Source: Promethearchaeota archaeon
Lineage (GTDB): Archaea; Asgardarchaeota; Lokiarchaeia; Sigyniarchaeales; SOKP01
DNA length: 39,688 nucleotides
Direction of reading: 5' to 3'
NCBI GenBank assembly: GCA_004524535.1
Contig: SDNY01000020.1
Location: 1 to 39,688 of the forward strand
Shown: positions 10,086 through 31,067 of the stretch, in pieces
How positions within the stretch are numbered: position 1 is the first letter of the stretch
Layout: each line of letters begins with the position of its first letter
Notes under the pieces: model-generated
Databases searched by the model: none
Seen by the model: the letters and a program-made list of their open reading frames with translations, nothing else
What the model was told of the DNA's origin: nothing
Program-made: the position numbers and the translations under genes

Positions 10086-11765
10086 TTATTCAATAAGATC
10101 TGCGTCCGTAAGAATTTTTTTATGATCAAAAGCCAGATCCATTTCCTTCAGCCTTCTTCTTGGGACAAGGATAATATCTATTGCATCATCTCTGCTTTTC
10201 ATATCAGAGACATTCCCTTTTAATCTACACTTATATGCAGTTGAATGAATTGGGCCACGAGGATCTCTACCTTCTTCGTCGTAATATCCAATTTTTTTAA
10301 TAATTTGTACGTCTAAATTGGTCTCTTCCTTGACTTCTCTTATTAATGCATGTTTAATATTTTCACCCTTTTCTACGAGTCCGCCAGGTAACGCATAAAA
10401 ATCTTTAAAAGGCGGGTACTTTCGCTTAATTAATACTATATTCCCCTCATTATCTTCAATAATAGCATCTACAGCTTTTCCAATTTCCTTTTCTTTAATT
10501 TTATATCTTAAGAATATATAGTATCCAAGTGTAATAACTAAAATTCCAATAATAAATAAGGCTATTAGGCTATGTAACAGAATTGAAGGCAAATCACTCT
10601 CTTCTAGACTTAAAGCGATAAGAATAACTCCAGCTAAATCGGCTAAAATACCTGCCCCAAAGAGGAGATTTAGTAAACTGAGCCCTTTTTCAGTTCTCTC
10701 TTGATTTTCTTTACTTTTTTGAAGATATAACTCTTGTAAAGCTGCTTCGATAATCTTAAATTTATCATTCACTCGATTAACTAAATCTTTTAATTCAAAT
10801 TCATTTATTAGATGTTTCAATACACTCGTATAATGTTCTCTCCTATTATAATCCAATTCATTATATATTACACTTAATCTTGTTTGAATAAGCCCTCGTA
10901 ATAATCCAAGATTTTTTATTTTATCTTCTACAATCTCGATATTAACAAATGCTCCTGAACGAGTTTTTAAAAATAATGAATCAAGAGATTGGTTAATTGA
11001 CCTTAGAGCGAATAAAACAGCCCTCATTTTTGGAGTGGGATCTAAAACATATTGTTTCATATACGATTCAAAGAAATTCTCATAGTTTTGCTCTGCCATA
11101 TATATAAATCCAGAATTTCGATAAATAAAATGTAATTCCGACAAACGATTAGAAAGATTGTCCCTTATTCTTCTGTCAAAAAGTTTTTCAGAATAATCTG
11201 GCCATTGACCTGAATAAATCACTGTCCAATAAGAAATAACTTTTTTGTATTTATCAATGTTTTCTTGTGTCCAACTAATATTCGGGGGATTTGTCTTATT
11301 TGAGATGGTAAAGATATAAATAGGACTTTCTAAATCAAAGAAAACACCTTCATTTCCAGGCTTTCTGCTAAATTCCTTTAATAGGTTTAGAACAATATAG
11401 GGTATCTGCTGTATTAATAAGGAATTAATCTTTTCCTTTTTGGAAGGATCATCTTTAAAATATTCTATATCGAATTGGAAAAAACCGAGTGTGTTATATT
11501 TTCTCTCAGAATTTTCATCTGTATAAGGAAAATTCTCCACATATGTAACCCATTTGCATGATAAATTAATATTTTTAGCCATTTCGATCAAATTATCCTT
11601 TAGCTCTTTACGATAAATATCGTCATCTGTTAAATTACTCAGTTTATCGTGGATGAGATTTTTAAAATGTTGGCTTAACTTGTTTTCATTAACTTTAGTA
11701 GTATTCAGAAATGCGCTAATGAACCAAATTTCTTCTTTATAAATGAATTGTAAATTTTCCGTCAT
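10086..11765 (-). CDS. Membrane protein with long helical region, two TM helices and a C-terminal Nudix hydrolase domain
   Basis: Nudix box GGLVEKGENIKHALIREVKEETNL, RDPRG, LAFDH; two hydrophobic helices in the C-terminal half before the Nudix domain. Confidence 0.8.
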   Translation of the reverse strand: MTENLQFIYKEEIWFISAFLNTTKVNENKLSQHFKNLIHDKLSNLTDDDIYRKELKDNLIEMAKNINLSCKWVTYVENFPYTDENSERKYNTLGFFQFDIEYFKDDPSKKEKINSLLIQQIPYIVLNLLKEFSRKPGNEGVFFDLESPIYIFTISNKTNPPNISWTQENIDKYKKVISYWTVIYSGQWPDYSEKLFDRRIRDNLSNRLSELHFIYRNSGFIYMAEQNYENFFESYMKQYVLDPTPKMRAVLFALRSINQSLDSLFLKTRSGAFVNIEIVEDKIKNLGLLRGLIQTRLSVIYNELDYNRREHYTSVLKHLINEFELKDLVNRVNDKFKIIEAALQELYLQKSKENQERTEKGLSLLNLLFGAGILADLAGVILIALSLEESDLPSILLHSLIALFIIGILVITLGYYIFLRYKIKEKEIGKAVDAIIEDNEGNIVLIKRKYPPFKDFYALPGGLVEKGENIKHALIREVKEETNLDVQIIKKIGYYDEEGRDPRGPIHSTAYKCRLKGNVSDMKSRDDAIDIILVPRRRLKEMDLAFDHKKILTDADLIE

Positions 11766-16654: not shown

Positions 16655-18493
16655 TTAGTAGAGATCTTTAATTACAAAGTTTAAATTTAAATCTGTCAAT
16701 GTTTCTTTGGTTGGATATGCGTTTTCAGGATTCCAACCCATATTTTTGCAATATCCTTTATAGTCTTCCAAATAATCAACATCAACAGTTCTCTCAGGCA
16801 ATTTATTATTTATTACATCAATTCCTTCTCTTAAAGAAAATGAATGTCTTAATGTCTGAATCCTTAAACCTGCTTTCACAAGTTCATCTATAGAAATATC
16901 CCACCCAACTATTGCTTTTATTAATTCTATTAATGGATATTTCAGAAAGTTATAAATAAATTCGCACAATCCAACACAATTGGTTGCTTGGAAAATCCCA
17001 CATACTAATTTTTCAGCTTCACTTCTCTCATCACCAGGCCTTTTATATTTTCTTGGCAACTCAAAACCCTCAAATAATCCATTTGATTTTACTAAAGGCC
17101 CTCGTATATACATGTCCAGTGTTGCTGTTGTATGTCTTCCTGGAGTAGGGTCAAATGCATAACTTGCACCTAAGCTGTTATAAACTTTTGGAGAATGCAT
17201 CCCAAGCTCTTGACCCATCGAATGCATAGCATACTTGCTGCTCCCTTTCTCAATTTTTTCCGAAGCAATTTTTGAACCATCTGCTAATATATCTCCAAAA
17301 CCCTCACGATTAATGATCTTCTTGACTAATTCTATAATTACGGATGAATTGCCCCATGTTAATTCGAGACCATCGGTATCTTCTTTACTAAGAATACCAT
17401 TTTCATAACATTCTATAGCGAATGCGACTGTTGCTCCTGTGGATATTGTATCTATTCCAGCTCTATTACATAAATCATTTATTGTAAATAATGACATAAG
17501 ATCGTTATTGAGGACAAGGTGCCCAAAAGTAGCACAAGTTTCATATTCAGGCCGATGAGTCTCATCGAGTCCAAGTTCAGGGACTTTCATTATAGACCCA
17601 CATTGAACTGGACAAGAAAAACATCCATAAGGTTTTTGTCTATATTTATTTATTTCCATTCCCGAAATCTTATTAATCATCTCCATAGGGAAATCTTCAT
17701 TGACAGTTCCGCCCCAATTTTTAATTGGTGTATCTCCAGTTTGAGCACAATAAGTATTTGCCATAGTTGTGCCAAATGTTTTCCATCCGACAATCATTCC
17801 TTTTGATGAAGATATCCCTTCATTGTACTCTTTTGTAAGATTAAGTAATGCCTCTTTATCTGCTACAGTGATAGCTTTATTTCCCTTTAAAACAATAGCT
17901 TTTAATTTTTTAGAACCCATAACAGCCCCAAAACCAGATCTTCCCGCAATTCTAGCTTTATCATTTACAATTCCTGAGATTAACGAGAGTTTTTCCCCTG
18001 ATTGCCCTATGCTCATAACTTGGACTTTTCCATGCTTTTCTGTCAGTTTTTCTTCTGTTTGGACAACATCTAAGCCCCATAAATCAGAAGCATCTAAAAT
18101 TTGCTTGTCATCATTAATGATTGTTATATATTTTGGACTACTTGCCATTCCTTTAATAATTATCGCATCATAGCCACATTTTCTAATCTCTGGACCAAAA
18201 TACCCTCCACAATTAGAGTCTCCCCAGGTTCCTGTCAATGGAGACTTACCAGCGACCATAAAGCGCCCTGTTAGAGGAGCAACTGTACCCGTTAACAATC
18301 CTGGAAAAAATCCAAAAAGAGCATCAGACCCAAGAGCATCCGTTTTTGAAGGCATATTTTCATAAATTAATTTTGCTGCTAAGCCATAACCTCCAAGATA
18401 TTGTCGATAAGTCTCATCTGGTAATTGTTCTTCTTTAAAAGTTCCCTCAGAAAGATTTATCCATAAAATTTTACCCATATATCCATTAGACAT
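16655..18493 (-). CDS. aor: Tungsten-dependent aldehyde:ferredoxin oxidoreductase family protein
   Basis: KSPLTG, GAVMGSKKLKA, CFSCPVQC, PEYET, GIDTIS, GLC. Confidence 0.92.
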   Translation of the reverse strand: MSNGYMGKILWINLSEGTFKEEQLPDETYRQYLGGYGLAAKLIYENMPSKTDALGSDALFGFFPGLLTGTVAPLTGRFMVAGKSPLTGTWGDSNCGGYFGPEIRKCGYDAIIIKGMASSPKYITIINDDKQILDASDLWGLDVVQTEEKLTEKHGKVQVMSIGQSGEKLSLISGIVNDKARIAGRSGFGAVMGSKKLKAIVLKGNKAITVADKEALLNLTKEYNEGISSSKGMIVGWKTFGTTMANTYCAQTGDTPIKNWGGTVNEDFPMEMINKISGMEINKYRQKPYGCFSCPVQCGSIMKVPELGLDETHRPEYETCATFGHLVLNNDLMSLFTINDLCNRAGIDTISTGATVAFAIECYENGILSKEDTDGLELTWGNSSVIIELVKKIINREGFGDILADGSKIASEKIEKGSSKYAMHSMGQELGMHSPKVYNSLGASYAFDPTPGRHTTATLDMYIRGPLVKSNGLFEGFELPRKYKRPGDERSEAEKLVCGIFQATNCVGLCEFIYNFLKYPLIELIKAIVGWDISIDELVKAGLRIQTLRHSFSLREGIDVINNKLPERTVDVDYLEDYKGYCKNMGWNPENAYPTKETLTDLNLNFVIKDLY

Positions 18494-18614: not shown

Positions 18615-19487
18615 TCATAATAGTAAGTTTGGAAATCTCTTTTCCATTGCTAATTCTTTTTCAATGACTTGATTTAATAATTCTTCACGTTCTTTGCCCC
18701 CAAGAACTTCTAGTTTTCTAATTTCCAATGGATCGACTTTTCCTCTTAAGAGTTTAATTTCTTTTTCTGTTGGGGGTTTTGTCTCTTTCAAATCTTTTGG
18801 AATAATCAATTCAAAACCAGTTGATTTTTTTACCGTCTCAAGATCTATGCCTGGATGGATCGTACCAATTTTCATTCTCTTAGTTTCATTATCAAAAGTA
18901 AGATATGCAAGATTAGTTATTACACATTGAGGTCCAGAACCACCACATATACTTGGCTTCCCATCTGGAAATCCAACTCCTGAAATAAAATCAACTTTTG
19001 GAACAAATGTTTTCCTATCGTGCCTTGGGGTGTATAAAAAACTCCCTCGTGAATAAAACATAGAAAAATCCGCTATGCCAGCACATCCAGGAAACCTAAT
19101 TTTCGGATTTTTCCACTCACCAATACAAATATTATTTGTATTCCCATACATATCAATTTGAGCTGGTCTAAACCATTCAATTGTAGTTAATGTATCTGAA
19201 GGAAGAGATTCTAAGGTACATTCCCCTGAATTTTGAAACTTATATGCTCTAGCGGTATTCATCTCCAAATATAACAATGATACTTGACGGGGTTCAAATA
19301 CATATGTATTACCCATGATATAATGAAAAATTGCATCTGGTGCGTGAGTTACTTTTGCTAAAGTAAATGCTGCCCATACACAAGGGGTTGCAACTCCAAC
19401 GATCATAACGTCGTCATTTCTAACTTCTCTGGCCATTAAGACCGTAAGCATCTCATCCATTGTATAATCCTTTGAATATTCACTCAT
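18615..19487 (-). CDS. Class I CoA-transferase-fold beta subunit (GctB/CatJ/IpdB-like)
   Basis: AQIDMYGNTN, RFPG.AG, FVPKVDFISGVG, HPG, TGFEL; ATG at 19487 preferred because of the GGAGG SD upstream. Confidence 0.85.
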   Translation of the reverse strand: MSEYSKDYTMDEMLTVLMAREVRNDDVMIVGVATPCVWAAFTLAKVTHAPDAIFHYIMGNTYVFEPRQVSLLYLEMNTARAYKFQNSGECTLESLPSDTLTTIEWFRPAQIDMYGNTNNICIGEWKNPKIRFPGCAGIADFSMFYSRGSFLYTPRHDRKTFVPKVDFISGVGFPDGKPSICGGSGPQCVITNLAYLTFDNETKRMKIGTIHPGIDLETVKKSTGFELIIPKDLKETKPPTEKEIKLLRGKVDPLEIRKLEVLGGKEREELLNQVIEKELAMEKRFPNLLL

Positions 19488-19504
19488 ACTACTTCTCACT
19501 CCTC

Positions 19505-20362
19505 CTATAACAATACATTTAAAATTGTTTGTACTCCACCTACTTCTTCCAGATATTGACTATGAGTCTTATTTAGAATATATTTACGCTTATACTCCTC
19601 AAAATCTGTCTTAAGATAAGTTTGAATGTGAATCGGGTCAAAGGTATAGTTTGGAAAACAACTTGTAGGATGTGCTCCAAACGGAACTTTTACTACAGCA
19701 GCCGTAGTTTGCATTGGTATCTGAGCTCTTCTAGGTAATCTGATTATATCCTCAGTCTCAACTAACTTTTCAGATATAATAATTGTTTTTTTTGCGGTTT
19801 TTGCCATGTCATCGTCAAGCCAAACAGCTCCTTCGATATTTCCATTTCCAAACTCATCAGCATCATTAACATGTACAATAGCAACATCTAAGTCGATCTT
19901 AGGCATTGCCATTAGTTGAGTACCTGAACCTAAGGGATCTTCAAATTGTTTGATGTCATCTCTGACCTTTGGAAAATCTGTACCTATTATCCCTTTCAAA
20001 GGCATGAATGGTACCTTTAAGTAAGAACATTTAAGCCCTAAAGCAATCGAAGCTTCGCTTTCCTCAGAGATCCTGATTTCTCCAGACTCAACGCCCTTTC
20101 GATAGTGAGGAGCCATCCCAAAAACTTCCATACCGACAAAAGATGCTCTTATCTCAGAAACACATCCTCCTCCAACAAGCATATCTACATCAATCCCCCC
20201 AACAAAAGTACAAATCGAGAGGTCCTTTTTCTCTTGTCTGATTATTTCCCTGCAGGCGCATATTGGTTTCCTCCAAAATGATAATCCACCAATACCAATA
20301 AGATCGCCATTTTGGACATATGATGAAATCGCTTCTTCTAATGACATGAGTTTAGAATCCAT
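19505..20362 (-). CDS. Class I CoA-transferase-fold alpha subunit (GctA/CatI/IpdA-like)
   Basis: MSLEEAI...GD.IGIGG, RKP, DMLVGGG, GTD, DVAIVH..AD.FGN, PFGAHPTSC. Confidence 0.88.
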   Translation of the reverse strand: MDSKLMSLEEAISSYVQNGDLIGIGGLSFWRKPICACREIIRQEKKDLSICTFVGGIDVDMLVGGGCVSEIRASFVGMEVFGMAPHYRKGVESGEIRISEESEASIALGLKCSYLKVPFMPLKGIIGTDFPKVRDDIKQFEDPLGSGTQLMAMPKIDLDVAIVHVNDADEFGNGNIEGAVWLDDDMAKTAKKTIIISEKLVETEDIIRLPRRAQIPMQTTAAVVKVPFGAHPTSCFPNYTFDPIHIQTYLKTDFEEYKRKYILNKTHSQYLEEVGGVQTILNVLL

Positions 20363-20541
20363 TTATAAACCTCAAAAAGATGATATTAAAATTTTAAGAA
20401 CTCTATAGAAATTAAAATTGTTAATACAATATTAATAATGTCAGATCGAAAATTTAATTTGATTTATCATACTGTCCAAAATATATTTAAATACAAAAAC
20501 TTAGAAACCAATAAAAGGTGTAGAATATTACTCGAGAAAGA

Positions 20542-21094
20542 TTGAAGCAAGGACTTGTCCAAGTCTATTTTGGTAGAGGCAAAACTGCTGCCGTTTAAGG
20601 CAGAAGTGCCTAAGGGTAAAACTACCGCAGCCATAGGACAAGGAATACGCGCTATTGGACATGGTTTTAAAGTATACATGATACAATTTATGAAAGGAAA
20701 TTATAAATATGGAGAGATAAGGGCTCTTAAAGAGCTTCCCAACTTTGAGTTAAAACAATTTGGAAGCCCCGACCTCATAGCAGAACCAGGAGATTTTGAT
20801 CGTGAAGAGGGGAAAAAAGCGCTTGATTTTGCTAAAGAAATCATTATAAGTGATGAATATGATATAGTTATCCTCGATGAGGTGGGGGTTGCTATATCTA
20901 TGAATGTCATATCTGTTGAACCTGTTTTGGAACTTATAAAAAATAAACCTGAAAAAGTGGAATTGATTTTGACAGGGGGTCCACAAATGCATCCCAAAAT
21001 AAAACAAGTTGCTGATTTAGTTACCGAGATGAAAATGATAAAACATTATTATTCCTCTCAGGGTATTACTTCAAGATATGGAATTGAATATTAA
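20542..21094 (+). CDS. cobO: Cob(I)alamin adenosyltransferase CobO/BtuR/CobA, two exons: join(20542..20582,20614..21094), 173 aa
   Basis: Exon 1 from TTG gives MKQGLVQVYFGRG; exon 2 gives (K)GKTTAAIGQG..QFMKG..ILDE..ELILTG..ADLVTEM..KH..GIEY. The ORF-track N-terminus (MSKSILVEA...) is out of frame with exon 1. Confidence 0.88.
20583..20613 (+). other. Candidate 31-nt bulge-helix-bulge (BHB/BHL-type) intron in cobO mRNA
   Basis: 4-bp central helix AGGC(20577-80)/GCCT(20608-11), AAA bulge (20581-83), AAG (20612-14) on the 3' side, internal hairpin ACTGCTGCC-GTTTAA-GGCAGAAGT; in-frame TAA at 20596; excision restores GRGKGKTT. Confidence 0.78.
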
Positions 21095-21109
21095 TTAAAA
21101 AGCTATAAT

Positions 21110-21853
21110 TCATAATTCAAAATTTAAGCCGTCATACGCTGCGATGGTATTATTAAAGAATATTTTAGCTGCTGTTTCTGACTGTTTTCGTTCTTCCATT
21201 GTTTTGTAAAGGCTGGCGTCAAAATGTGTAATTATAAGTTGCTTAACATTACATTGTTTAGCGATATTGGCAGCAGATTCTGGATTTAGATGGGGCCAAG
21301 AGTCTTCAAATTGACCAGATTTATAAGAACACTCGCTTATTAGTAAATCAACATCGTTTGCAAGTTCTAAGATATTATCACACATACCAGTGTCAGTACA
21401 ATACGCAATTTTTTTATCATCAAGCTCAAATCTATAACCTAAACAAAGATCTGAATGAACAAGGAGTTTACAATTGAAATTAACTGGCTGTTTGTATTCA
21501 CCTTCTTCTATTTCATGTATTTCTGCGTTAAAAGGTAATTCACTTAACGGCACAGTAAAAGGATGGCGTAAAATTGTATCAATATTTTTTTTGATCCCAG
21601 TATATCCATATATTTGCATCTTTTCTTTAAATTGAAATTTATTAAAGATATGAATTCCAACGATATGATCAAGGTGCAAATGACTAAGAAATAATAGAAT
21701 TGGCTTATCATCCTTTATATAATTATCTATTTTGTAAAGACCATCACCAGCATCAAGAATTATATAAAATTCTCTTGAGTCAATTAGAATACAGGAAGTG
21801 TTGCCAGTTAATGTTGAAAACCAGCCATTAGTTCCTAAAAAAATAACTTTCAA
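21110..21853 (-). CDS. Metallo-beta-lactamase-fold hydrolase, RNase Z/ElaC-like
   Basis: FLGT.G, LDAG.G, SHLHLDH, YCTDT, LISECS, H...A, THF; TTG start. Confidence 0.85.
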   Translation of the reverse strand: MKVIFLGTNGWFSTLTGNTSCILIDSREFYIILDAGDGLYKIDNYIKDDKPILLFLSHLHLDHIVGIHIFNKFQFKEKMQIYGYTGIKKNIDTILRHPFTVPLSELPFNAEIHEIEEGEYKQPVNFNCKLLVHSDLCLGYRFELDDKKIAYCTDTGMCDNILELANDVDLLISECSYKSGQFEDSWPHLNPESAANIAKQCNVKQLIITHFDASLYKTMEERKQSETAAKIFFNNTIAAYDGLNFEL

Positions 21854-21920
21854 ATTTTAGTGTCAACTTTTAGTATTGTTACCATTTGATGGCATCGGGG
21901 TCAGAAAAGTTTAACTTATT

Positions 21921-22130
21921 TTAGTCGAATTCGACACCGATTTCCTTGAAAGAGACCTTAGGATATTGGGCAATCGCAATCACTTCTTTCCTTAAATAAT
22001 AGAAGAACAACTTATGCGTCCATCTTAGATGGTTCATCCTATTTGAAATATTATTCTCTTGAAGGAGTGCATAAAACCAATCCAAGTCCTTAGAGATTTT
22101 TGCTCTTCTAAATTCAACAAATTCTCCCAT
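21921..22130 (-). CDS. Small hypothetical protein
   Basis: 69-aa ORF with ATG start; no recognised motif. Confidence 0.35.
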   Translation of the reverse strand: MGEFVEFRRAKISKDLDWFYALLQENNISNRMNHLRWTHKLFFYYLRKEVIAIAQYPKVSFKEIGVEFD

Positions 22131-22292
22131 ACCATTTCTCTTTGATCTTTTTCTCGTTCATTTTGAATGTTTGAAACTTTTAAAAATCAAGAAAGCTTTA
22201 CAGTCCCCTATAATATGTATAAAAATGAATTACTCAACATATTGGATTTAGAATATAATGATTATATTATGATAGTTATAATTGATTAAGCT

Positions 22293-24077
22293 ATGGATAT
22301 GGGATGCATTATAAGACCTGGAGATGAGGTTAAAATATTACCTGATTTTACAAAAGCAAGTATATTATTTGATGAATTAAGGGATTATGTTGAAGAAGTT
22401 ATAATACGAGCAGATATAGAGATTTTAACTAGAATAGGTACAATACTAGATGAAACATTATATTCATATATGGGATTAAAAGCTAGCCAATTTAGGACAA
22501 TGAAATATAGATTAAATAAAAAGAATTTACCTTCGCTTTATTTTATACCAAGAGTTTATCTCAATCTTTATGATAAATTGAGACCTTATGTATCGGATAA
22601 GGATTGGAAGACTATAGAATGTAAAATTAATGAGTTATATTCTGTTTTATTTCGAAGTAACTTAGGATTTTCAGATTTCAAATCTTTATACTTAAATCCT
22701 CAAATTGTCGACTTTAGCAAATTCAAAGAACTGTTTAGATCTTTCAAATATGGTCAAAGAAGTTCTCACATAGTATCTCAAAAACGATTTTTAATAGATA
22801 AATTAGAATTATCTTTCTTTAGTATTTTTCTTGAGTTTAGGGAAGGTAAAAGATCGCTTACTACAACCGATAGACATCTTAGTAACTTATTATTTGATAA
22901 AGCTTATAGGACAAATATTTTTACAGCTACTGAAAAAGAAGAAAGAATTAATTTGCCAACTCTTTTAGCTCTCATTTATAGAATAGATTGTTTAACATTA
23001 TTAGATTTAAAGTCTAAGGGTGTTAATAGTGCTAATCTACATAAGCTTGAGAGGCTGAAGGATAACTTTAGAGCAATAATAGAAGATTTTATTGTTAGCA
23101 ATCCTTACATTGATAGTCCATATATTGGTAAATGGGGTGAGACTATTATTGAGCGTGAACCAGAATTTTATAGACCTGAGCTGGAATTATTAATCGAATT
23201 TTATATTGCTTTTTCCAATCAAAAAGGTCGAGAGATTTCACTTGAAGAATTAAAGAATGAATTAGGCATTAATCCAGGATTTTTAAATTTACATGATGTT
23301 AGCATTATTACATGGAATACATTCTTAAAATTAGTTGGCGAGTTTAAAGGTAATTATTACTTTTTAGGTATCCTGCATAAGAGCTTAACTTGTAAAAATT
23401 ATAAGCGAACGTCTCAAGCATTAAGAATTTATAGGAATGATAGAGAAATAAATCCGCCAAAAGAGTCGGGATATCATGAGAATTGGAATGATAGGGATTT
23501 AAAGGATTTTCATATCGTGATTTTATTATTAAGAGATCTTGGTCATGATATTCGTAACCTACAGCCAATAGATTCATCTTCGTTTTTAAGACAATTAAAT
23601 AATAAATATAAGTTCAGACGTCATCATATATTTAAGGAAAGTGATAGAAAAAGTTTAGATCCAAATAAATTGGCTTTAGTAATACAAGCTTATCATTATG
23701 CCTTAGAGAGTCTTGATACTTCAACTGTTAATGATTTAATCAGCAAAAGACTTAATTGGAATGATAATTCATGTCCACAATTTTATAAGGAATTATTTCC
23801 AGATGATTGGAATGATTTATGGCAAGAAATTATTGAAAGGCGAGATTATTTAAAACAGCGTGGTGTTGAAGAATTTCTTAAGAAATATTATCCTGATGTG
23901 GTTACTCGAGTATTTGGGAATCGATTTGTCAAAGGATCATTAGAGACTAAAGTAAGAAATATGATTTATAATTGGATAAAATTAGGAAATCCAATACCTA
24001 ATCTTCCAGATTATTTAGATAATATTTTAATAGGTCCAATTCAACAAAAAATAACAAATTATTTAGGAAATCTTTAA
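22293..24077 (+). CDS. Large hypothetical protein with possible HTH-like and C-terminal HNH-like motifs
   Basis: 594-aa uninterrupted ORF in an AT-rich background; ISLEELKNELGIN; FRRHHIF...LALVIQAYH. Confidence 0.6.
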   Translation: MDMGCIIRPGDEVKILPDFTKASILFDELRDYVEEVIIRADIEILTRIGTILDETLYSYMGLKASQFRTMKYRLNKKNLPSLYFIPRVYLNLYDKLRPYVSDKDWKTIECKINELYSVLFRSNLGFSDFKSLYLNPQIVDFSKFKELFRSFKYGQRSSHIVSQKRFLIDKLELSFFSIFLEFREGKRSLTTTDRHLSNLLFDKAYRTNIFTATEKEERINLPTLLALIYRIDCLTLLDLKSKGVNSANLHKLERLKDNFRAIIEDFIVSNPYIDSPYIGKWGETIIEREPEFYRPELELLIEFYIAFSNQKGREISLEELKNELGINPGFLNLHDVSIITWNTFLKLVGEFKGNYYFLGILHKSLTCKNYKRTSQALRIYRNDREINPPKESGYHENWNDRDLKDFHIVILLLRDLGHDIRNLQPIDSSSFLRQLNNKYKFRRHHIFKESDRKSLDPNKLALVIQAYHYALESLDTSTVNDLISKRLNWNDNSCPQFYKELFPDDWNDLWQEIIERRDYLKQRGVEEFLKKYYPDVVTRVFGNRFVKGSLETKVRNMIYNWIKLGNPIPNLPDYLDNILIGPIQQKITNYLGNL

Positions 24078-28988: not shown

Positions 28989-31067
28989 TTATAAAATTAC
29001 GCTTTGCTTTTCAAATTTCGCATGGCTAATACCTGTGGAATGATCTTTTTCTACTAGGATTTTATGCGTTTGAATATCTGACGGGATAGCTGTATGAGTT
29101 ATTAGAAAAATCTGAGAAAAGGCCTTAGATTTCGTAAGATGCTTTAATATTCGCTCTCTCCTAACCTCATCTAAAGCTGCTAAAGGTTCATCTAATAAAA
29201 GAAAATTGATTTTTGGATTTTTTTTTGGAGACTCTTTAGTTGGACGAATTATGCTCATTAATTCACTAATGGCTAACCTTAAAGCCATACCTAACGCAGT
29301 ACGATCCCCCCCAGAAAGGACCTCGATAGGCTCATATTGACCATTAAAATAGTCCTTAATTTTAAGAGAAAGTCCTGTCTTTTTAGTACCTGTTAAATCT
29401 AGCATAAGTTCACCATATTGACCCGACGTAAAATCCTTAATATATCTATCCGCTTTCAACGTAATGTTTTTTACAAGACGCTTAACAACCATATATTCCG
29501 TCACAAATCGCCGGACGAATTCTTTTGCTTTAATAATATGTTCAAGATCAATTTCAATCTCGCCAATTTTTTTCTCTAAATCTTTCATTTTTTTGATTTC
29601 ATTGCTCAATTCCGTAATTCTAGTTTGATTATTTTTAATAGTAGCTCTTTTTTCTGCTATTTCCTTCTTAATCAATTTCAATTCCGTTGTTAATCTTTCT
29701 ATTTCGAGAGAAATATCCTTTATTCCCTTAGCACTTGAATCCTTGAACCTCTCTTTATTTTTTTTTAAAAAAACCGATAGTTCTTTTTGAATATTCGTTA
29801 ATTCTATATCGTATTTCTGATAATTCTCAAAGTCTTTCTCAAGATTTTGAATAATAGTAATTTGTTCGTTTATTTTATCTAAATCTTGTTGACATTTCTC
29901 AATATCTTTATTGTTATTTTTTATTAATTGAGATATTTCCTTAATTTTTTTCTGATTTAGTGCAAGTTCGTCATTAAAATTCTGAATAACATTATCATAG
30001 TGCTCTTTTGTAAGTTCGCTTTGACATGTAGGACAGAGTGCGGTTTGATTTTCAGTAAATTGTAAACTTTTTTCCATTTTACTAATTATTTTTGAAATAT
30101 CTTCAACTCTACCTTTAGTTTTTCCCATACCTTTAACAGTTGCTTGCTTTTTTTTGTCATTTTTCTCTTTATTAGCTTCAATTTCTCTTTTTGAGTTATC
30201 TAAGGTATTAAATTTATTCTTAATTTTTTCTAATGATGTGAAATCTTCTAAATTTAAATCAGTATTCTTAAGTTTTGTTTCAAAATCATTTTTATAAGAT
30301 TTGTATTTCTCTTCAGTTATTTCTTTATTTTTATATAAGTTCTCTAAATTGGAAATTAATTCATTTGAAGGATATGTTTTAAGGGTCGATTCGTATTCAA
30401 GCATTATTTTTTCTTTTTCTGAGATAATTTTCTTGTTATCATTGTTTTCCTGTTCAATACGCTTTATATCTTCTTCTATTCTTTCAATTGGAACACGAGA
30501 TTTTTCAAATTTTTCCTTTTCATGAGTTTTTGACTTTGATTCTTTATCTAGATATCTTAATGAATCGTCAATTATATTAAGACGAAATATATCAATAATC
30601 ATTTCTCTTAGTTTAGCACCCTTGATATTGGCCAATTCTTCTACTTCTCCTTGCCTAACAAATACAGTACTCATAGCTTGGTCTTTAGAAATTTCAAAAA
30701 ATTCCTCAATATTAAATTTTTTAATTTCCCGATACATTCCTTTTTTATCTGATTCAAAGAGTTTCACACTAGCGCTTCCAGATCTGCCCCATTTACGATA
30801 TATATAATATTTGATATTATCAAGCGAGAAAGATACACTCAATTCTGCCTTATTTTGACCATAGGTTATAAAAGATTCAGCTTTTCTACCAGTAAAAATT
30901 TTTGACCCAAAAAAAGCAAATAAAATACCTTCTAATATTGTAGATTTCCCATAAGAATTGTTTCCACTCACTAAAATTAATCCCTGAGGAAAGTCATCTT
31001 CTCCATCAGGCAGATTTAATTGTTTATAACCCATAAAATTTTTAAATATAAGTTTGGTTATTTTCAC
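28989..31067 (-). CDS. rad50: Rad50/SbcC SMC-family ATPase
   Basis: Walker A GNNSYGKST, Q-loop RQGE, zinc hook CPTC, signature LSGGD, Walker B LLLDEP, H-loop LITH; GTG start. Confidence 0.92.
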   Translation of the reverse strand: MKITKLIFKNFMGYKQLNLPDGEDDFPQGLILVSGNNSYGKSTILEGILFAFFGSKIFTGRKAESFITYGQNKAELSVSFSLDNIKYYIYRKWGRSGSASVKLFESDKKGMYREIKKFNIEEFFEISKDQAMSTVFVRQGEVEELANIKGAKLREMIIDIFRLNIIDDSLRYLDKESKSKTHEKEKFEKSRVPIERIEEDIKRIEQENNDNKKIISEKEKIMLEYESTLKTYPSNELISNLENLYKNKEITEEKYKSYKNDFETKLKNTDLNLEDFTSLEKIKNKFNTLDNSKREIEANKEKNDKKKQATVKGMGKTKGRVEDISKIISKMEKSLQFTENQTALCPTCQSELTKEHYDNVIQNFNDELALNQKKIKEISQLIKNNNKDIEKCQQDLDKINEQITIIQNLEKDFENYQKYDIELTNIQKELSVFLKKNKERFKDSSAKGIKDISLEIERLTTELKLIKKEIAEKRATIKNNQTRITELSNEIKKMKDLEKKIGEIEIDLEHIIKAKEFVRRFVTEYMVVKRLVKNITLKADRYIKDFTSGQYGELMLDLTGTKKTGLSLKIKDYFNGQYEPIEVLSGGDRTALGMALRLAISELMSIIRPTKESPKKNPKINFLLLDEPLAALDEVRRERILKHLTKSKAFSQIFLITHTAIPSDIQTHKILVEKDHSTGISHAKFEKQSVIL

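Follow-up and report, generated by a model that had tools for sequence, protein, structure and literature searches.

A candidate bulge-helix-bulge intron interrupting cobO in an Asgard archaeon, and similar short inserts in other protein-coding genes of the same genome

We analyzed a stretch of 39,688 nucleotides (nt) from a Promethearchaeota archaeon, contig SDNY01000020.1 of assembly GCA_004524535.1 (hereafter the window), and found that its gene for ATP:corrinoid adenosyltransferase, cobO, is interrupted by 31 nt that are very likely a spliced bulge-helix-bulge (BHB) intron of the cobO pre-mRNA (positions 20583-20613, Table 1). An earlier reading of the window (hereafter the original prediction) had proposed an mRNA intron of the type removed by the tRNA splicing endonuclease EndA and sealed by RtcB, and this proposal is supported by our analysis at every point at which it could be tested in sequence. 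The host genome, G000, is a metagenome-assembled genome (MAG) of 3.66 Mb in 198 contigs, with 30% G+C and 99% completeness, and the window is its contig C56. In agreement with the proposed Asgard host, the nearest named records are all MAGs of Promethearchaeota or Promethearchaeia.

According to the proposed mechanism, the end of exon 1 (AGGC) would pair with the 3' end of the intron (GCCU) to form a 4-bp central helix, which the 3-nt bulge AAA would set apart from the 8/9-bp hairpin of the intron. The second cleavage site, AAG, would directly follow the central helix on its 3' side and be part of a loop with no contiguous outer helix. A two-subunit EndA (alpha and beta) would cut after the second nucleotide at both sites, and RtcB would ligate the exons and probably circularize the intron, giving a mature mRNA for a complete adenosyltransferase of 173 residues. 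The cobO intron also appears to belong to a population of 26-33-nt introns in tRNA genes and in about a dozen protein genes.

The two halves of a broken cobO gene were both found where they had been proposed. From TTG 20542, which is the first ATG, GTG or TTG codon downstream of an in-frame TAG, the upstream frame translates to LKQGLVQVYFGRGKTAAV and then meets a stop, such that unspliced translation ends after 18 codons. The remainder of CobO lies in a second frame (..VPKGKTTAAIGQG..), which runs to the stop at 21092-21094 and matches the Pfam profile CobA_CobO_BtuR (PF02572) over positions 13-172 of 172 (E = 1.1e-50), with the first 12 positions missing. The peptide encoded by exon 1 was also found in uninterrupted relatives, in which ..GLVQVYFGRGK is identical. 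When exon 1 and exon 2 were joined, a frame of 173 codons plus stop with the Walker A motif GRGKGKTT was obtained, the junction of the predicted spliced product reading ...VYFGRGK/GKTTAAIGQGIR. Assignment to PF02572 is thus given for exon 2 by Pfam, for exon 1 by identity to relatives and for the joined frame by GRGKGKTT. Relative to its closest uninterrupted relative (L002, of the same genus, protein 91% identical), the gene contains exactly 31 more bases, the number originally proposed. An open reading frame (ORF) caller would see a 179-residue ORF from TTG 20555 at this locus, and the host genome has no second copy of cobO (one match in the genome). No Rfam family reached its gathering score anywhere in the window, nor did ARAGORN detect a tRNA within it. 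A group I or group II intron, which would have a ribozyme core of hundreds of nucleotides, or an intein, which would have an in-frame protein-splicing domain, is ruled out by the 31-nt size, by the stop and frameshift, and by the lack of any Rfam family in the window.

The fold put forward in the original prediction was recovered in the minimum free energy (MFE) structure of positions 20560-20640, which contains the 4-bp helix, the 3-nt bulge, the 8/9-bp stem (ACU.CUGCC/GGCAG.AGU) and an unpaired AAG. The energy of this structure is -25.9 kcal/mol (z = -2.46; 4/200 shuffles equally stable). Fold energy alone is therefore only mildly better than chance, and for this reason we placed the evidential weight on comparative data. 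Each strand of the motif carries its 3-nt bulge 3' of the 4-bp central helix, of which the exon provides one strand. Two types of motif, hBHBh' and HBh', are defined in PMC5829648. The strict form, hBHBh', has a 3-nt bulge on either strand of a 4-bp central helix, and each bulge borders on a second helix (h or h'); the relaxed form, HBh', seen in non-canonical introns cut by (alpha-beta)2 or epsilon2 EndA, has one well-formed 3-nt bulge, and its second cut falls in a looser loop beside H. The central helix (H), the 5' bulge and the intron stem (h') are all present at cobO, the 5' site being a regular bulge enclosed by two helices, and the structure is kept in 18 distinct sequences; because the 3' site has no contiguous outer helix, we assigned the motif to the relaxed HBh' form. 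The cut positions given in Table 1 would follow from the published rule together with the restored frame.

The exon-side closure had been described as relaxed, with either GGUAG/CUACC or UUUUG/UAAAA as its possible helix. Its relaxed, non-canonical character was upheld and RNAalifold prefers UUUUG/UAAAA, but GGUAG/CUACC is not kept in relatives. If the preferred helix forms, the 3' cut would fall within an internal loop of 4 x 5 nt; covariation can neither support nor refute this helix because coding (YFG, GKT) fixes both of its strands. In the MFE structure, the exon side forms UGGU/GCCA pairing and a local hairpin, GGUA/UACC.

To survey the site in relatives, we used a structure-blind pattern in which the exon codons were fixed and a gap of 27-41 free nt was allowed. 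The pattern matched 20/160 genomes of the class and 20/399 Asgard species genomes of the phylum, whereas a reversed control pattern matched none. This exact pattern is probably blind to diverged classes, such that non-matches elsewhere do not mean absence. All 20 intron-bearing genomes fall in a single family (f1) of the class to which the MAGs named Promethearchaeia belong, and in this family they are distributed over the genera g1 (1/9, the host genome itself), g11 (5/54), g2 (13/42) and g3 (1/7). In a first sample of 60 related species genomes, cobO was uninterrupted in 29/29 other readable loci. Named Asgard MAGs provided 80 loci, and in 13 of these the GRGK codons are followed at once by an insert, which keeps the frame but contains a stop in some loci and shifts the frame in others. 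As had been anticipated for an alignment of orthologues, these relatives carry the insert at the same codon and have kept its pairing by compensatory changes.

Covariation was analyzed for 13 proposed pairs in the 20 pattern-selected sequences, 18 of which are distinct. Pairing was possible in 90.2% of cells, compared with 33-59% when the 3' partners were slid by 1-3 columns. Compensatory double changes were present in 6/9 stem pairs (6/13 of all pairs), and the covariation score was reached by 0/500 column shuffles. In the central helix, 98.6% of cells pair and each of the four pairs varies at just one of its partners (G-C to G-U, U-G to C-G), with no double-sided change in any of the four among the 18 distinct sequences. 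An earlier set of 14 sequences had given similar values (89.7% pairing, six compensatory pairs, 0/500 shuffles), and RNAalifold recovered both helices unaided.

Cutting in silico after the second nucleotide of each bulge, as the original prediction had specified, restored FGRGKGKTT and an open frame of 173 or 174 codons in 20/20 genomes. The lengths removed were 29 nt (eight genomes), 30 nt (ten), 31 nt (one) and 33 nt (one). The search pattern itself forces most of FGRGKGKTT, but neither the third base of the junction codon nor the downstream frame. That third base is a purine in 20/20 genomes, and the junction codon is therefore always Lys. An in-frame stop is present in 11/11 introns whose length is divisible by three. 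For the spliced coding sequence, the ratio of non-synonymous to synonymous substitution rates (dN/dS) was 0.026-0.087 in the eight computable pairs with other intron-bearing genomes.

Exon 1 also bears the mark of coding sequence. Among its 15 codons, variable columns at codon positions 1, 2 and 3 number 8, 2 and 14, respectively, and over all pairs there are 953 synonymous versus 343 non-synonymous codon differences, in a set in which the last four of the 15 codons are partly fixed by the search pattern and synonymous sites are saturated. The peptide GLVQVYFGRG is invariant across the 20 genomes, save for V to I in two. Because this substitution pattern is of the coding type despite the stop or frameshift before exon 2, exon 1 is evidently still read in its own frame. 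Selection on exon 1 is the main argument both against a dead gene and against translation from an internal start.

The enzymes required for such a reaction are encoded in the host genome, which contains two genes of the tRNA_int_endo family (PF01974; 107.9 and 70.7 bits, each a 201-residue ORF) and one RtcB gene (561 bits). One EndA paralogue keeps what we take to be a Tyr/His/Lys-like catalytic set, whereas the other is without the His. Such a split is presumably what is to be expected of alpha and beta subunits. Asgard archaea are described in PMC5829648 as having an (alpha-beta)2 EndA with an L1 loop that gives broad specificity, and a preprint counts two EndA paralogues in 44/60 Asgard genomes (bioRxiv 10.64898/2026.10.13.758758). 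Cleavage between the second and third bulge residues is the rule given for cbf5 in PMC2738675.

A scan of the genome for other broken genes, an extension that the original prediction had foreseen, revealed the same architecture in about a dozen further protein-coding genes. The script searched for the build of helix, bulge, hairpin and helix and demanded that removal join two open frames, and it returned many chance matches. Most inserts in protein genes are exactly 30 nt long, with a 9-bp stem and a 5-nt loop, within an overall range of 26-32 nt (Table 1). At the gene for RNA polymerase A', the Pfam profile RNA_pol_Rpb1_1 continues across the insert (positions 34-73 and then 74-153), and among the three subunits of CO dehydrogenase/acetyl-CoA synthase, CdhD displays the clearest Pfam continuity; exon 1 of CdhA gave no Pfam match. 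A single Pfam domain likewise continues across the junction in the SCP2 protein and the EF-2-like GTPase, whereas in the Ras-like GTPase, L11, argininosuccinate synthase, the B12-binding domain, CdhC/ACS beta, Elp3 and the aldolase the Pfam matches of the exons lie at the offset to be expected of a profile divided between them. The bulges of the L11 insert are GUA and CAA, i.e., not A-initial. In this 99%-complete genome, the only loci for Rpb1 domain 1 and L11_N contain the stop of the insert, and neither gene can therefore be dead. We consider it likely that at least 12-14 protein genes of the host genome carry 26-32-nt BHB introns, which would make mRNA splicing obligatory and EndA plus RtcB a general mRNA-maturation system in this Asgard lineage. 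The introns lie at GC-rich codons of conserved motifs, at which half of the cleavage motif can be provided by the exon. Conserved Gly/Arg/His-rich motif codons would be among the few sites to offer a stable 4-bp exon strand at 30% G+C, and imprecise loss of an intron from such codons would presumably be lethal.

The RNA polymerase insert was also followed in relatives. It was present in 7/30 loci read and, by pattern, in 9/160 genomes of the class, belonging to five genera of the same family. In the nine sequences, 93.2% of cells pair versus 33-47% in slid controls, and 10/13 pairs are compensatory. One of these joins exon and intron within the central helix, such that changes at a codon's wobble base are matched by changes in the intron. 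In most of these inserts the last three bases, directly ahead of exon 2, are TAA, which leaves no way for exon 2 to start separately. Longer inserts were observed at the same site in G023 (L183), where it is about 40 nt, and in G020:C212 (L144), where it is longer, differently framed and missed by the pattern; the length of the intron at this site thus varies beyond the 30-nt mode. The patchy presence among genera of both the cobO insert (20/399 genomes) and the RNA polymerase insert (9/160) points to repeated gain or loss.

Table 1. Positions of the cobO exons, the elements of the candidate intron and the candidate inserts in other protein-coding genes. Plain positions refer to the window; G000 is the host genome, C numbers are its contigs, and positions after the equals sign are those of the same insert in the named locus (L).
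Feature	Position	Strand	Remarks
cobO exon 1	20542..20582	+	TTG start, 13 codons plus AA of the Lys codon; encodes (M)KQGLVQVYFGRG
Candidate intron, 31 nt	20583..20613	+	Site of insert is the Walker A codons of cobO
cobO exon 2	20614..21094	+	Opens with G of the Lys codon, then GKTTAAIG; ends at stop
Central helix H, exon strand AGGC	20577..20580	+	Pairs with 20608-20611 (MFE, RNAalifold)
5' bulge AAA	20581..20583	+	Unpaired in MFE and RNAalifold; between H and intron stem; predicted cut 20582/20583
Intron stem h', 5' arm ACUGCUGCC	20584..20592	+	8/9 positions pair with 20599-20607
Hairpin loop GUUUAA	20593..20598	+	Contains the in-frame TAA that ends the exon-1 frame
Intron stem h', 3' arm GGCAGAAGU	20599..20607	+	MFE fold, compensatory changes
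Central helix H, intron strand GCCU	20608..20611	+	MFE, RNAalifold, comparative pairing
3' bulge/loop AAG	20612..20614	+	Unpaired in MFE and RNAalifold; predicted cut 20613/20614
Possible outer exon-exon helix UUUUG/UAAAA	20568..20572 with 20617..20621	+	RNAalifold consensus; weak, putative
RNA polymerase A' (Rpb1 domain 1)	G000:C17:309-338 = L122:307-336	-	30 nt, in-frame TAG; site GHFGH/IELAR
Ribosomal protein L11	G000:C188:175-204 = L126:129-158	+	30 nt, TAA; exon 2 from L11_N 21/58
EF-2/EF-G-like GTPase	G000:C129:9431-9460 = L121:2062-2091	-	30 nt, between G1 and G2; GTP_EFTU 2-35 and 49-187
Ras-family small GTPase	G000:C161:11851-11880 = L116:485-514	-	30 nt, just before P-loop; exon 2 from Ras 4/162
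CdhA-like Prismane protein	G000:C100:12004-12033 = L114:2142-2171	-	30 nt; weaker support
CdhC/ACS beta	G000:C32:3640-3669 = L115:602-631	+	30 nt; CdhC in exon 1, ACS_CODH_B_C 25-64 in exon 2
CdhD	G000:C8:3057-3086 = L118:502-531	-	30 nt; Pfam 7-135 and 138-227
Elp3	G000:C98:11116-11146	-	ELP3_N in exon 1; Radical_SAM from position 73 in exon 2
DeoC-family aldolase	G000:C16:3517-3548	+	Exon 1 reaches profile position 220/229
SCP2 protein	G000:C86:9543-9568	+	SCP2 3-72 and 74-98
Argininosuccinate synthase	G000:C8:15418-15447	-	Inside SGGLDTS codons; exon 2 from Arginosuc_synth 12/162
B12-binding domain	G000:C113:6524-6555	-	At DxH motif; exon 2 from 12/121
POR gamma-like gene	G000:C189:15035-15064	-	One-sided Pfam support; top held-out covariance-model score, 30.4 bits

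The same scan found several introns in tRNA genes of the host genome, 28-34 nt in length and likewise built from a 4-bp helix, a 3-nt bulge and a stem of 8-9 bp. ARAGORN with its intron search listed 22 tRNA genes in this genome, 13 of them with introns, two of which are of an implausible kilobase size; multiple or non-canonical introns probably conceal many tRNA genes. A covariance model was then built from 18 introns of 30 nt, among which the cobO intron was not included and from which three introns misaligned by MAFFT were left out. With the cobO intron thus held out, the best match of the model in the window was 20577-20614 (22.3 bits, E = 0.017 in 50 kb). The model also matched the candidates in CdhD, the aldolase, POR-gamma and C174, and missed five others. 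Three further matches in the window (17610-17644 and 30864-30910 on the plus strand and 11544-11580 on the minus strand; E = 0.25-0.85) were counted as chance, the first two being antisense to intact ORFs and the third pairing poorly by eye.

Several results count against splicing of cobO or against the wider set of introns. A search for sequencing runs covering window positions 19000-23000 listed none of RNA. The strict hBHBh' motif is not formed at cobO, with no contiguous exon-exon helix beyond the 3' AAG in either the MFE or the RNAalifold structure, such that cleavage would rely on an EndA of broad specificity. The nearest relatives in the same genus, L002 and L003, are uninterrupted, and 0/8 other g1 genomes match the pattern. 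On a CobO tree of 91 distinct rows, made by a quick method and poorly resolved, the intron trait needs ten changes, although starred branches force only one; one old gain followed by many losses, or several gains, may both fit this tree. The statistics of the whole genome were also weak. Of 26,990 loose candidates, 759 restore an ORF of 30+30 codons under the true cut rule, compared with 795-822 under rules shifted by 1-2 nt, and stricter pairing scores gave a small excess (8 vs. 2-5 and 4 vs. 0-2). A 3-nt bulge yielded 190 strong candidates versus 136-185 for bulges of 0, 1, 2, 4 or 5 nt or for the other strand. A clear excess appeared only with a post hoc filter for two A-initial bulges and a length of 26-34 nt (12 vs. 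1-4 and 14 vs. 3-5), and one of the 20 rows passing the A-initial filter is the intron of tRNA-Leu(CAA). The covariance model recovered 5/12 held-out candidate places at E <= 1, and when it was run on the whole genome, with 150/6729 first-look candidates scored, only a training sequence was returned. Because these genome-wide controls are weak, the claim of other introns rests on Pfam continuity and covariation.

Other explanations of the cobO insert, which together we regard as unlikely though not negligible, were weighed against this evidence. The insert could have created an internal start at GTG 20606-20608, in which case an unspliced, N-terminally truncated CobO may formally be made from about (M)PKGKTT and the 18-codon upstream frame would be a dead remnant. 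A start-type codon (AUG, GUG or UUG) does occur in the exon-2 frame where the stem meets the central helix, in 18/18 distinct sequences and as ATG in many relatives; GTG can start genes, and a caller would report the 179-residue ORF from TTG 20555. The UG of this codon is, however, held by base pairing (pairs 16-41 and 12-42 of the alignment), and the codon therefore need not have been selected as a start. Moreover, exon 1 is conserved as coding sequence (8/2/14; 953 vs. 343), the product would miss Pfam positions 1-12, and the parallel RNA polymerase inserts mostly end in TAA before exon 2, leaving no start. We therefore hold a truncated start to be improbable. We judged with still less favor the view that cobO is a pseudogene produced by a 31-nt insertion, through slippage or local duplication, with an incidental hairpin. 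The closest relatives are without the insert, and its 5' arm is similar to the beginning of exon 2, as might be expected after a local duplication, yet in 20 genomes of four genera this codon is interrupted between intact exons, with a dN/dS of 0.026-0.087, the helices are kept by compensatory changes, the host genome has no second cobO copy, and inserts of the same build interrupt its only RNA polymerase A' and L11 loci. The original prediction had named decay of cobO without structural conservation in relatives as fatal to its proposal; selection and covariation contradict this.

That the insert is dealt with during translation, whether through a programmed frameshift or because ribosomes bypass the hairpin, also seems very improbable to us. 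Translational bypassing, as in phage T4 gene 60, and programmed frameshifts likewise place a short untranslated gap, a hairpin and a stop inside a coding sequence, and bypassing depends on a gap of fixed size between take-off and landing codons that match. The cobO insert has a stable hairpin and a stop codon right after the would-be take-off region, but unlike in gene 60 its gap varies over 29-33 nt, and lengths of 29, 30, 31 and 33 nt would each demand a different shift. No matched take-off and landing codons were seen in the 20 sequences, and the hairpin and the exon-intron helix covary in an exact BHB geometry that is conserved and is shared by tRNA introns. Early cases of cbf5 were first confused with frameshifting, according to PMC2738675. 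A different possibility is that EndA cleavage at cobO is mainly a regulatory or decay step, or that splicing depends on conditions and acts as a switch on CobO synthesis. EndA substrates beyond tRNA and rRNA have been discussed for Haloferax (PMC7714728); exact restoration of frame and motif in 20/20 genomes and inserts in essential single-copy genes would nevertheless require productive ligation much of the time, and we rate the switch about as low as the truncated start. Lastly, although the genome is a MAG of 198 contigs, an assembly or binning artefact is hardly conceivable given variant inserts in two other studies, a 14-kb contig of depth 56 and 19 other genomes with inserts. That the insert is real DNA, a point on which the original prediction had depended, is clear from a contig of run X1, possibly the source sample, which is identical over the stretch (14 kb, depth 56), and from contigs of X3 and X4, from the two other studies, which carry variant inserts; run X2 holds an intron-less relative. 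The X3 contig, of 100 nt, matches 20535-20628 with six extra bases (20586-20588) and one substitution in the intron stem or loop, and represents a closely related strain whose intron is 37 nt long.

The closest known counterpart of the cobO intron, read as a spliced BHB intron, is that of cbf5 in Desulfurococcales and Sulfolobales, which PMC2738675 describes as having a relaxed motif and the same cut rule. It is further described there as cut by a hetero-oligomeric EndA, as lying inside a codon of a catalytic motif and as patchily distributed, with gain and loss debated, in all of which the cobO intron is comparable. The two differ in gene and in phylum, and the Asgard genome has about a dozen candidate introns in its protein genes, that of cobO among them. 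Splicing of cbf5 is backed by cDNA and enzyme evidence, and that of cobO is predicted from comparative genomic data. The cbf5/TruB_N locus of the host genome is one open frame of 353 residues with no stops; members of the cbf5 intron family lie at the catalytic Asp codon of cbf5, which encodes a TruB-type pseudouridine synthase. Because the cbf5 locus is uninterrupted here, and because the intron lies in cobO, the cobO intron is not a member of the cbf5 intron lineage, although it would work in the same manner.

A second comparison is with the HBh'-type tRNA introns of Asgard and TACK archaea, with which the cobO intron shares architecture and size, as the tRNA introns of the host genome show. 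The presumed enzyme, an (alpha-beta)2 EndA with the L1 loop, is also shared (PMC5829648). Asgard tRNA genes are reported to be heavily interrupted, with repeated gains (bioRxiv 10.64898/2026.10.13.758758 and PMC11291895). In contrast to tRNA introns, the host RNA of the cobO intron would be an mRNA, the exon half of the motif consists of codons, and removal must be exact to the nucleotide for the frame to be kept. BHB sites in archaeal pre-rRNA and other EndA substrates share the motif and the enzymes and give circular products (PMC7714728). Such sites release or circularize stable RNAs and, unlike the cobO intron, restore no ORF.

According to PMC2738675, splicing had as of 2009 been confirmed for no gene besides cbf5. 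The cbf5 gene of some Crenarchaeota has been the only confirmed BHB-spliced archaeal protein gene since 2002, and it is still the sole example cited in the endonuclease papers of 2018 and 2025 that we consulted. Our searches of the open-access literature, with subscription journals and supplements outside their scope, yielded no account of a BHB intron in any protein-coding gene of an Asgard archaeon. As far as these searches show, the novelty lies in the gene, in the phylum and in how many genes are affected, the mechanism being that known from cbf5. After cbf5, cobO would be the second such gene, from another phylum and with its structure established by comparative data, and the phenomenon would be plural and reach essential information-processing genes. 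If true, EndA plus RtcB would serve general mRNA maturation in close prokaryotic relatives of eukaryotes, and confirmation by RNA work would bear on ideas of how cells came to tolerate introns in protein genes before there was a spliceosome. The patchy distribution at a same site would then also provide a tractable system for the gain and loss of BHB introns. Annotation pipelines, if the introns are confirmed, mis-call such genes as frameshifted, truncated or split, and these mis-calls would distort metabolic reconstructions (B12 salvage, the Wood-Ljungdahl complex) as well as the marker-gene sets of Asgard MAGs.

Among other features of the host genome, a 594-residue ORF lies downstream of cobO (window 22293-24077, plus strand) and matches no Pfam family at E <= 0.001. 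Three candidates from the genome scan were set aside. In the phosphoglucomutase candidate on C65, exon 2 matches PGM_PMM_I from 95/138 while the proposed 28-residue exon 1 is unmatched; the candidate on C138 has no Pfam support; and the candidate at C174:55724-55753, the exons of which were not scanned, was not upheld and is without Pfam support. The phosphoglucomutase-family ORF itself (G000:C65:12922-14351, L128) is interrupted in some way for which the candidate intron gives no account.

In the cobO intron, the 5' arm (20584-20592) seems to repeat, in degenerate form, the codons with which exon 2 begins (20618-20629; A-ACN-ACN-G...). This resemblance is shared by L164-L182, and the unspliced frame therefore reads GK-T(T)-.. 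before the stop. It is not genome-specific, since the 5' arm scored 0.715 against its own exon 2 and 0.695 in cross comparisons. Possibly the intron arose by local duplication, of which the resemblance would be a trace. By eye, some of the introns in the RNA polymerase A' gene similarly resemble their exon 2.

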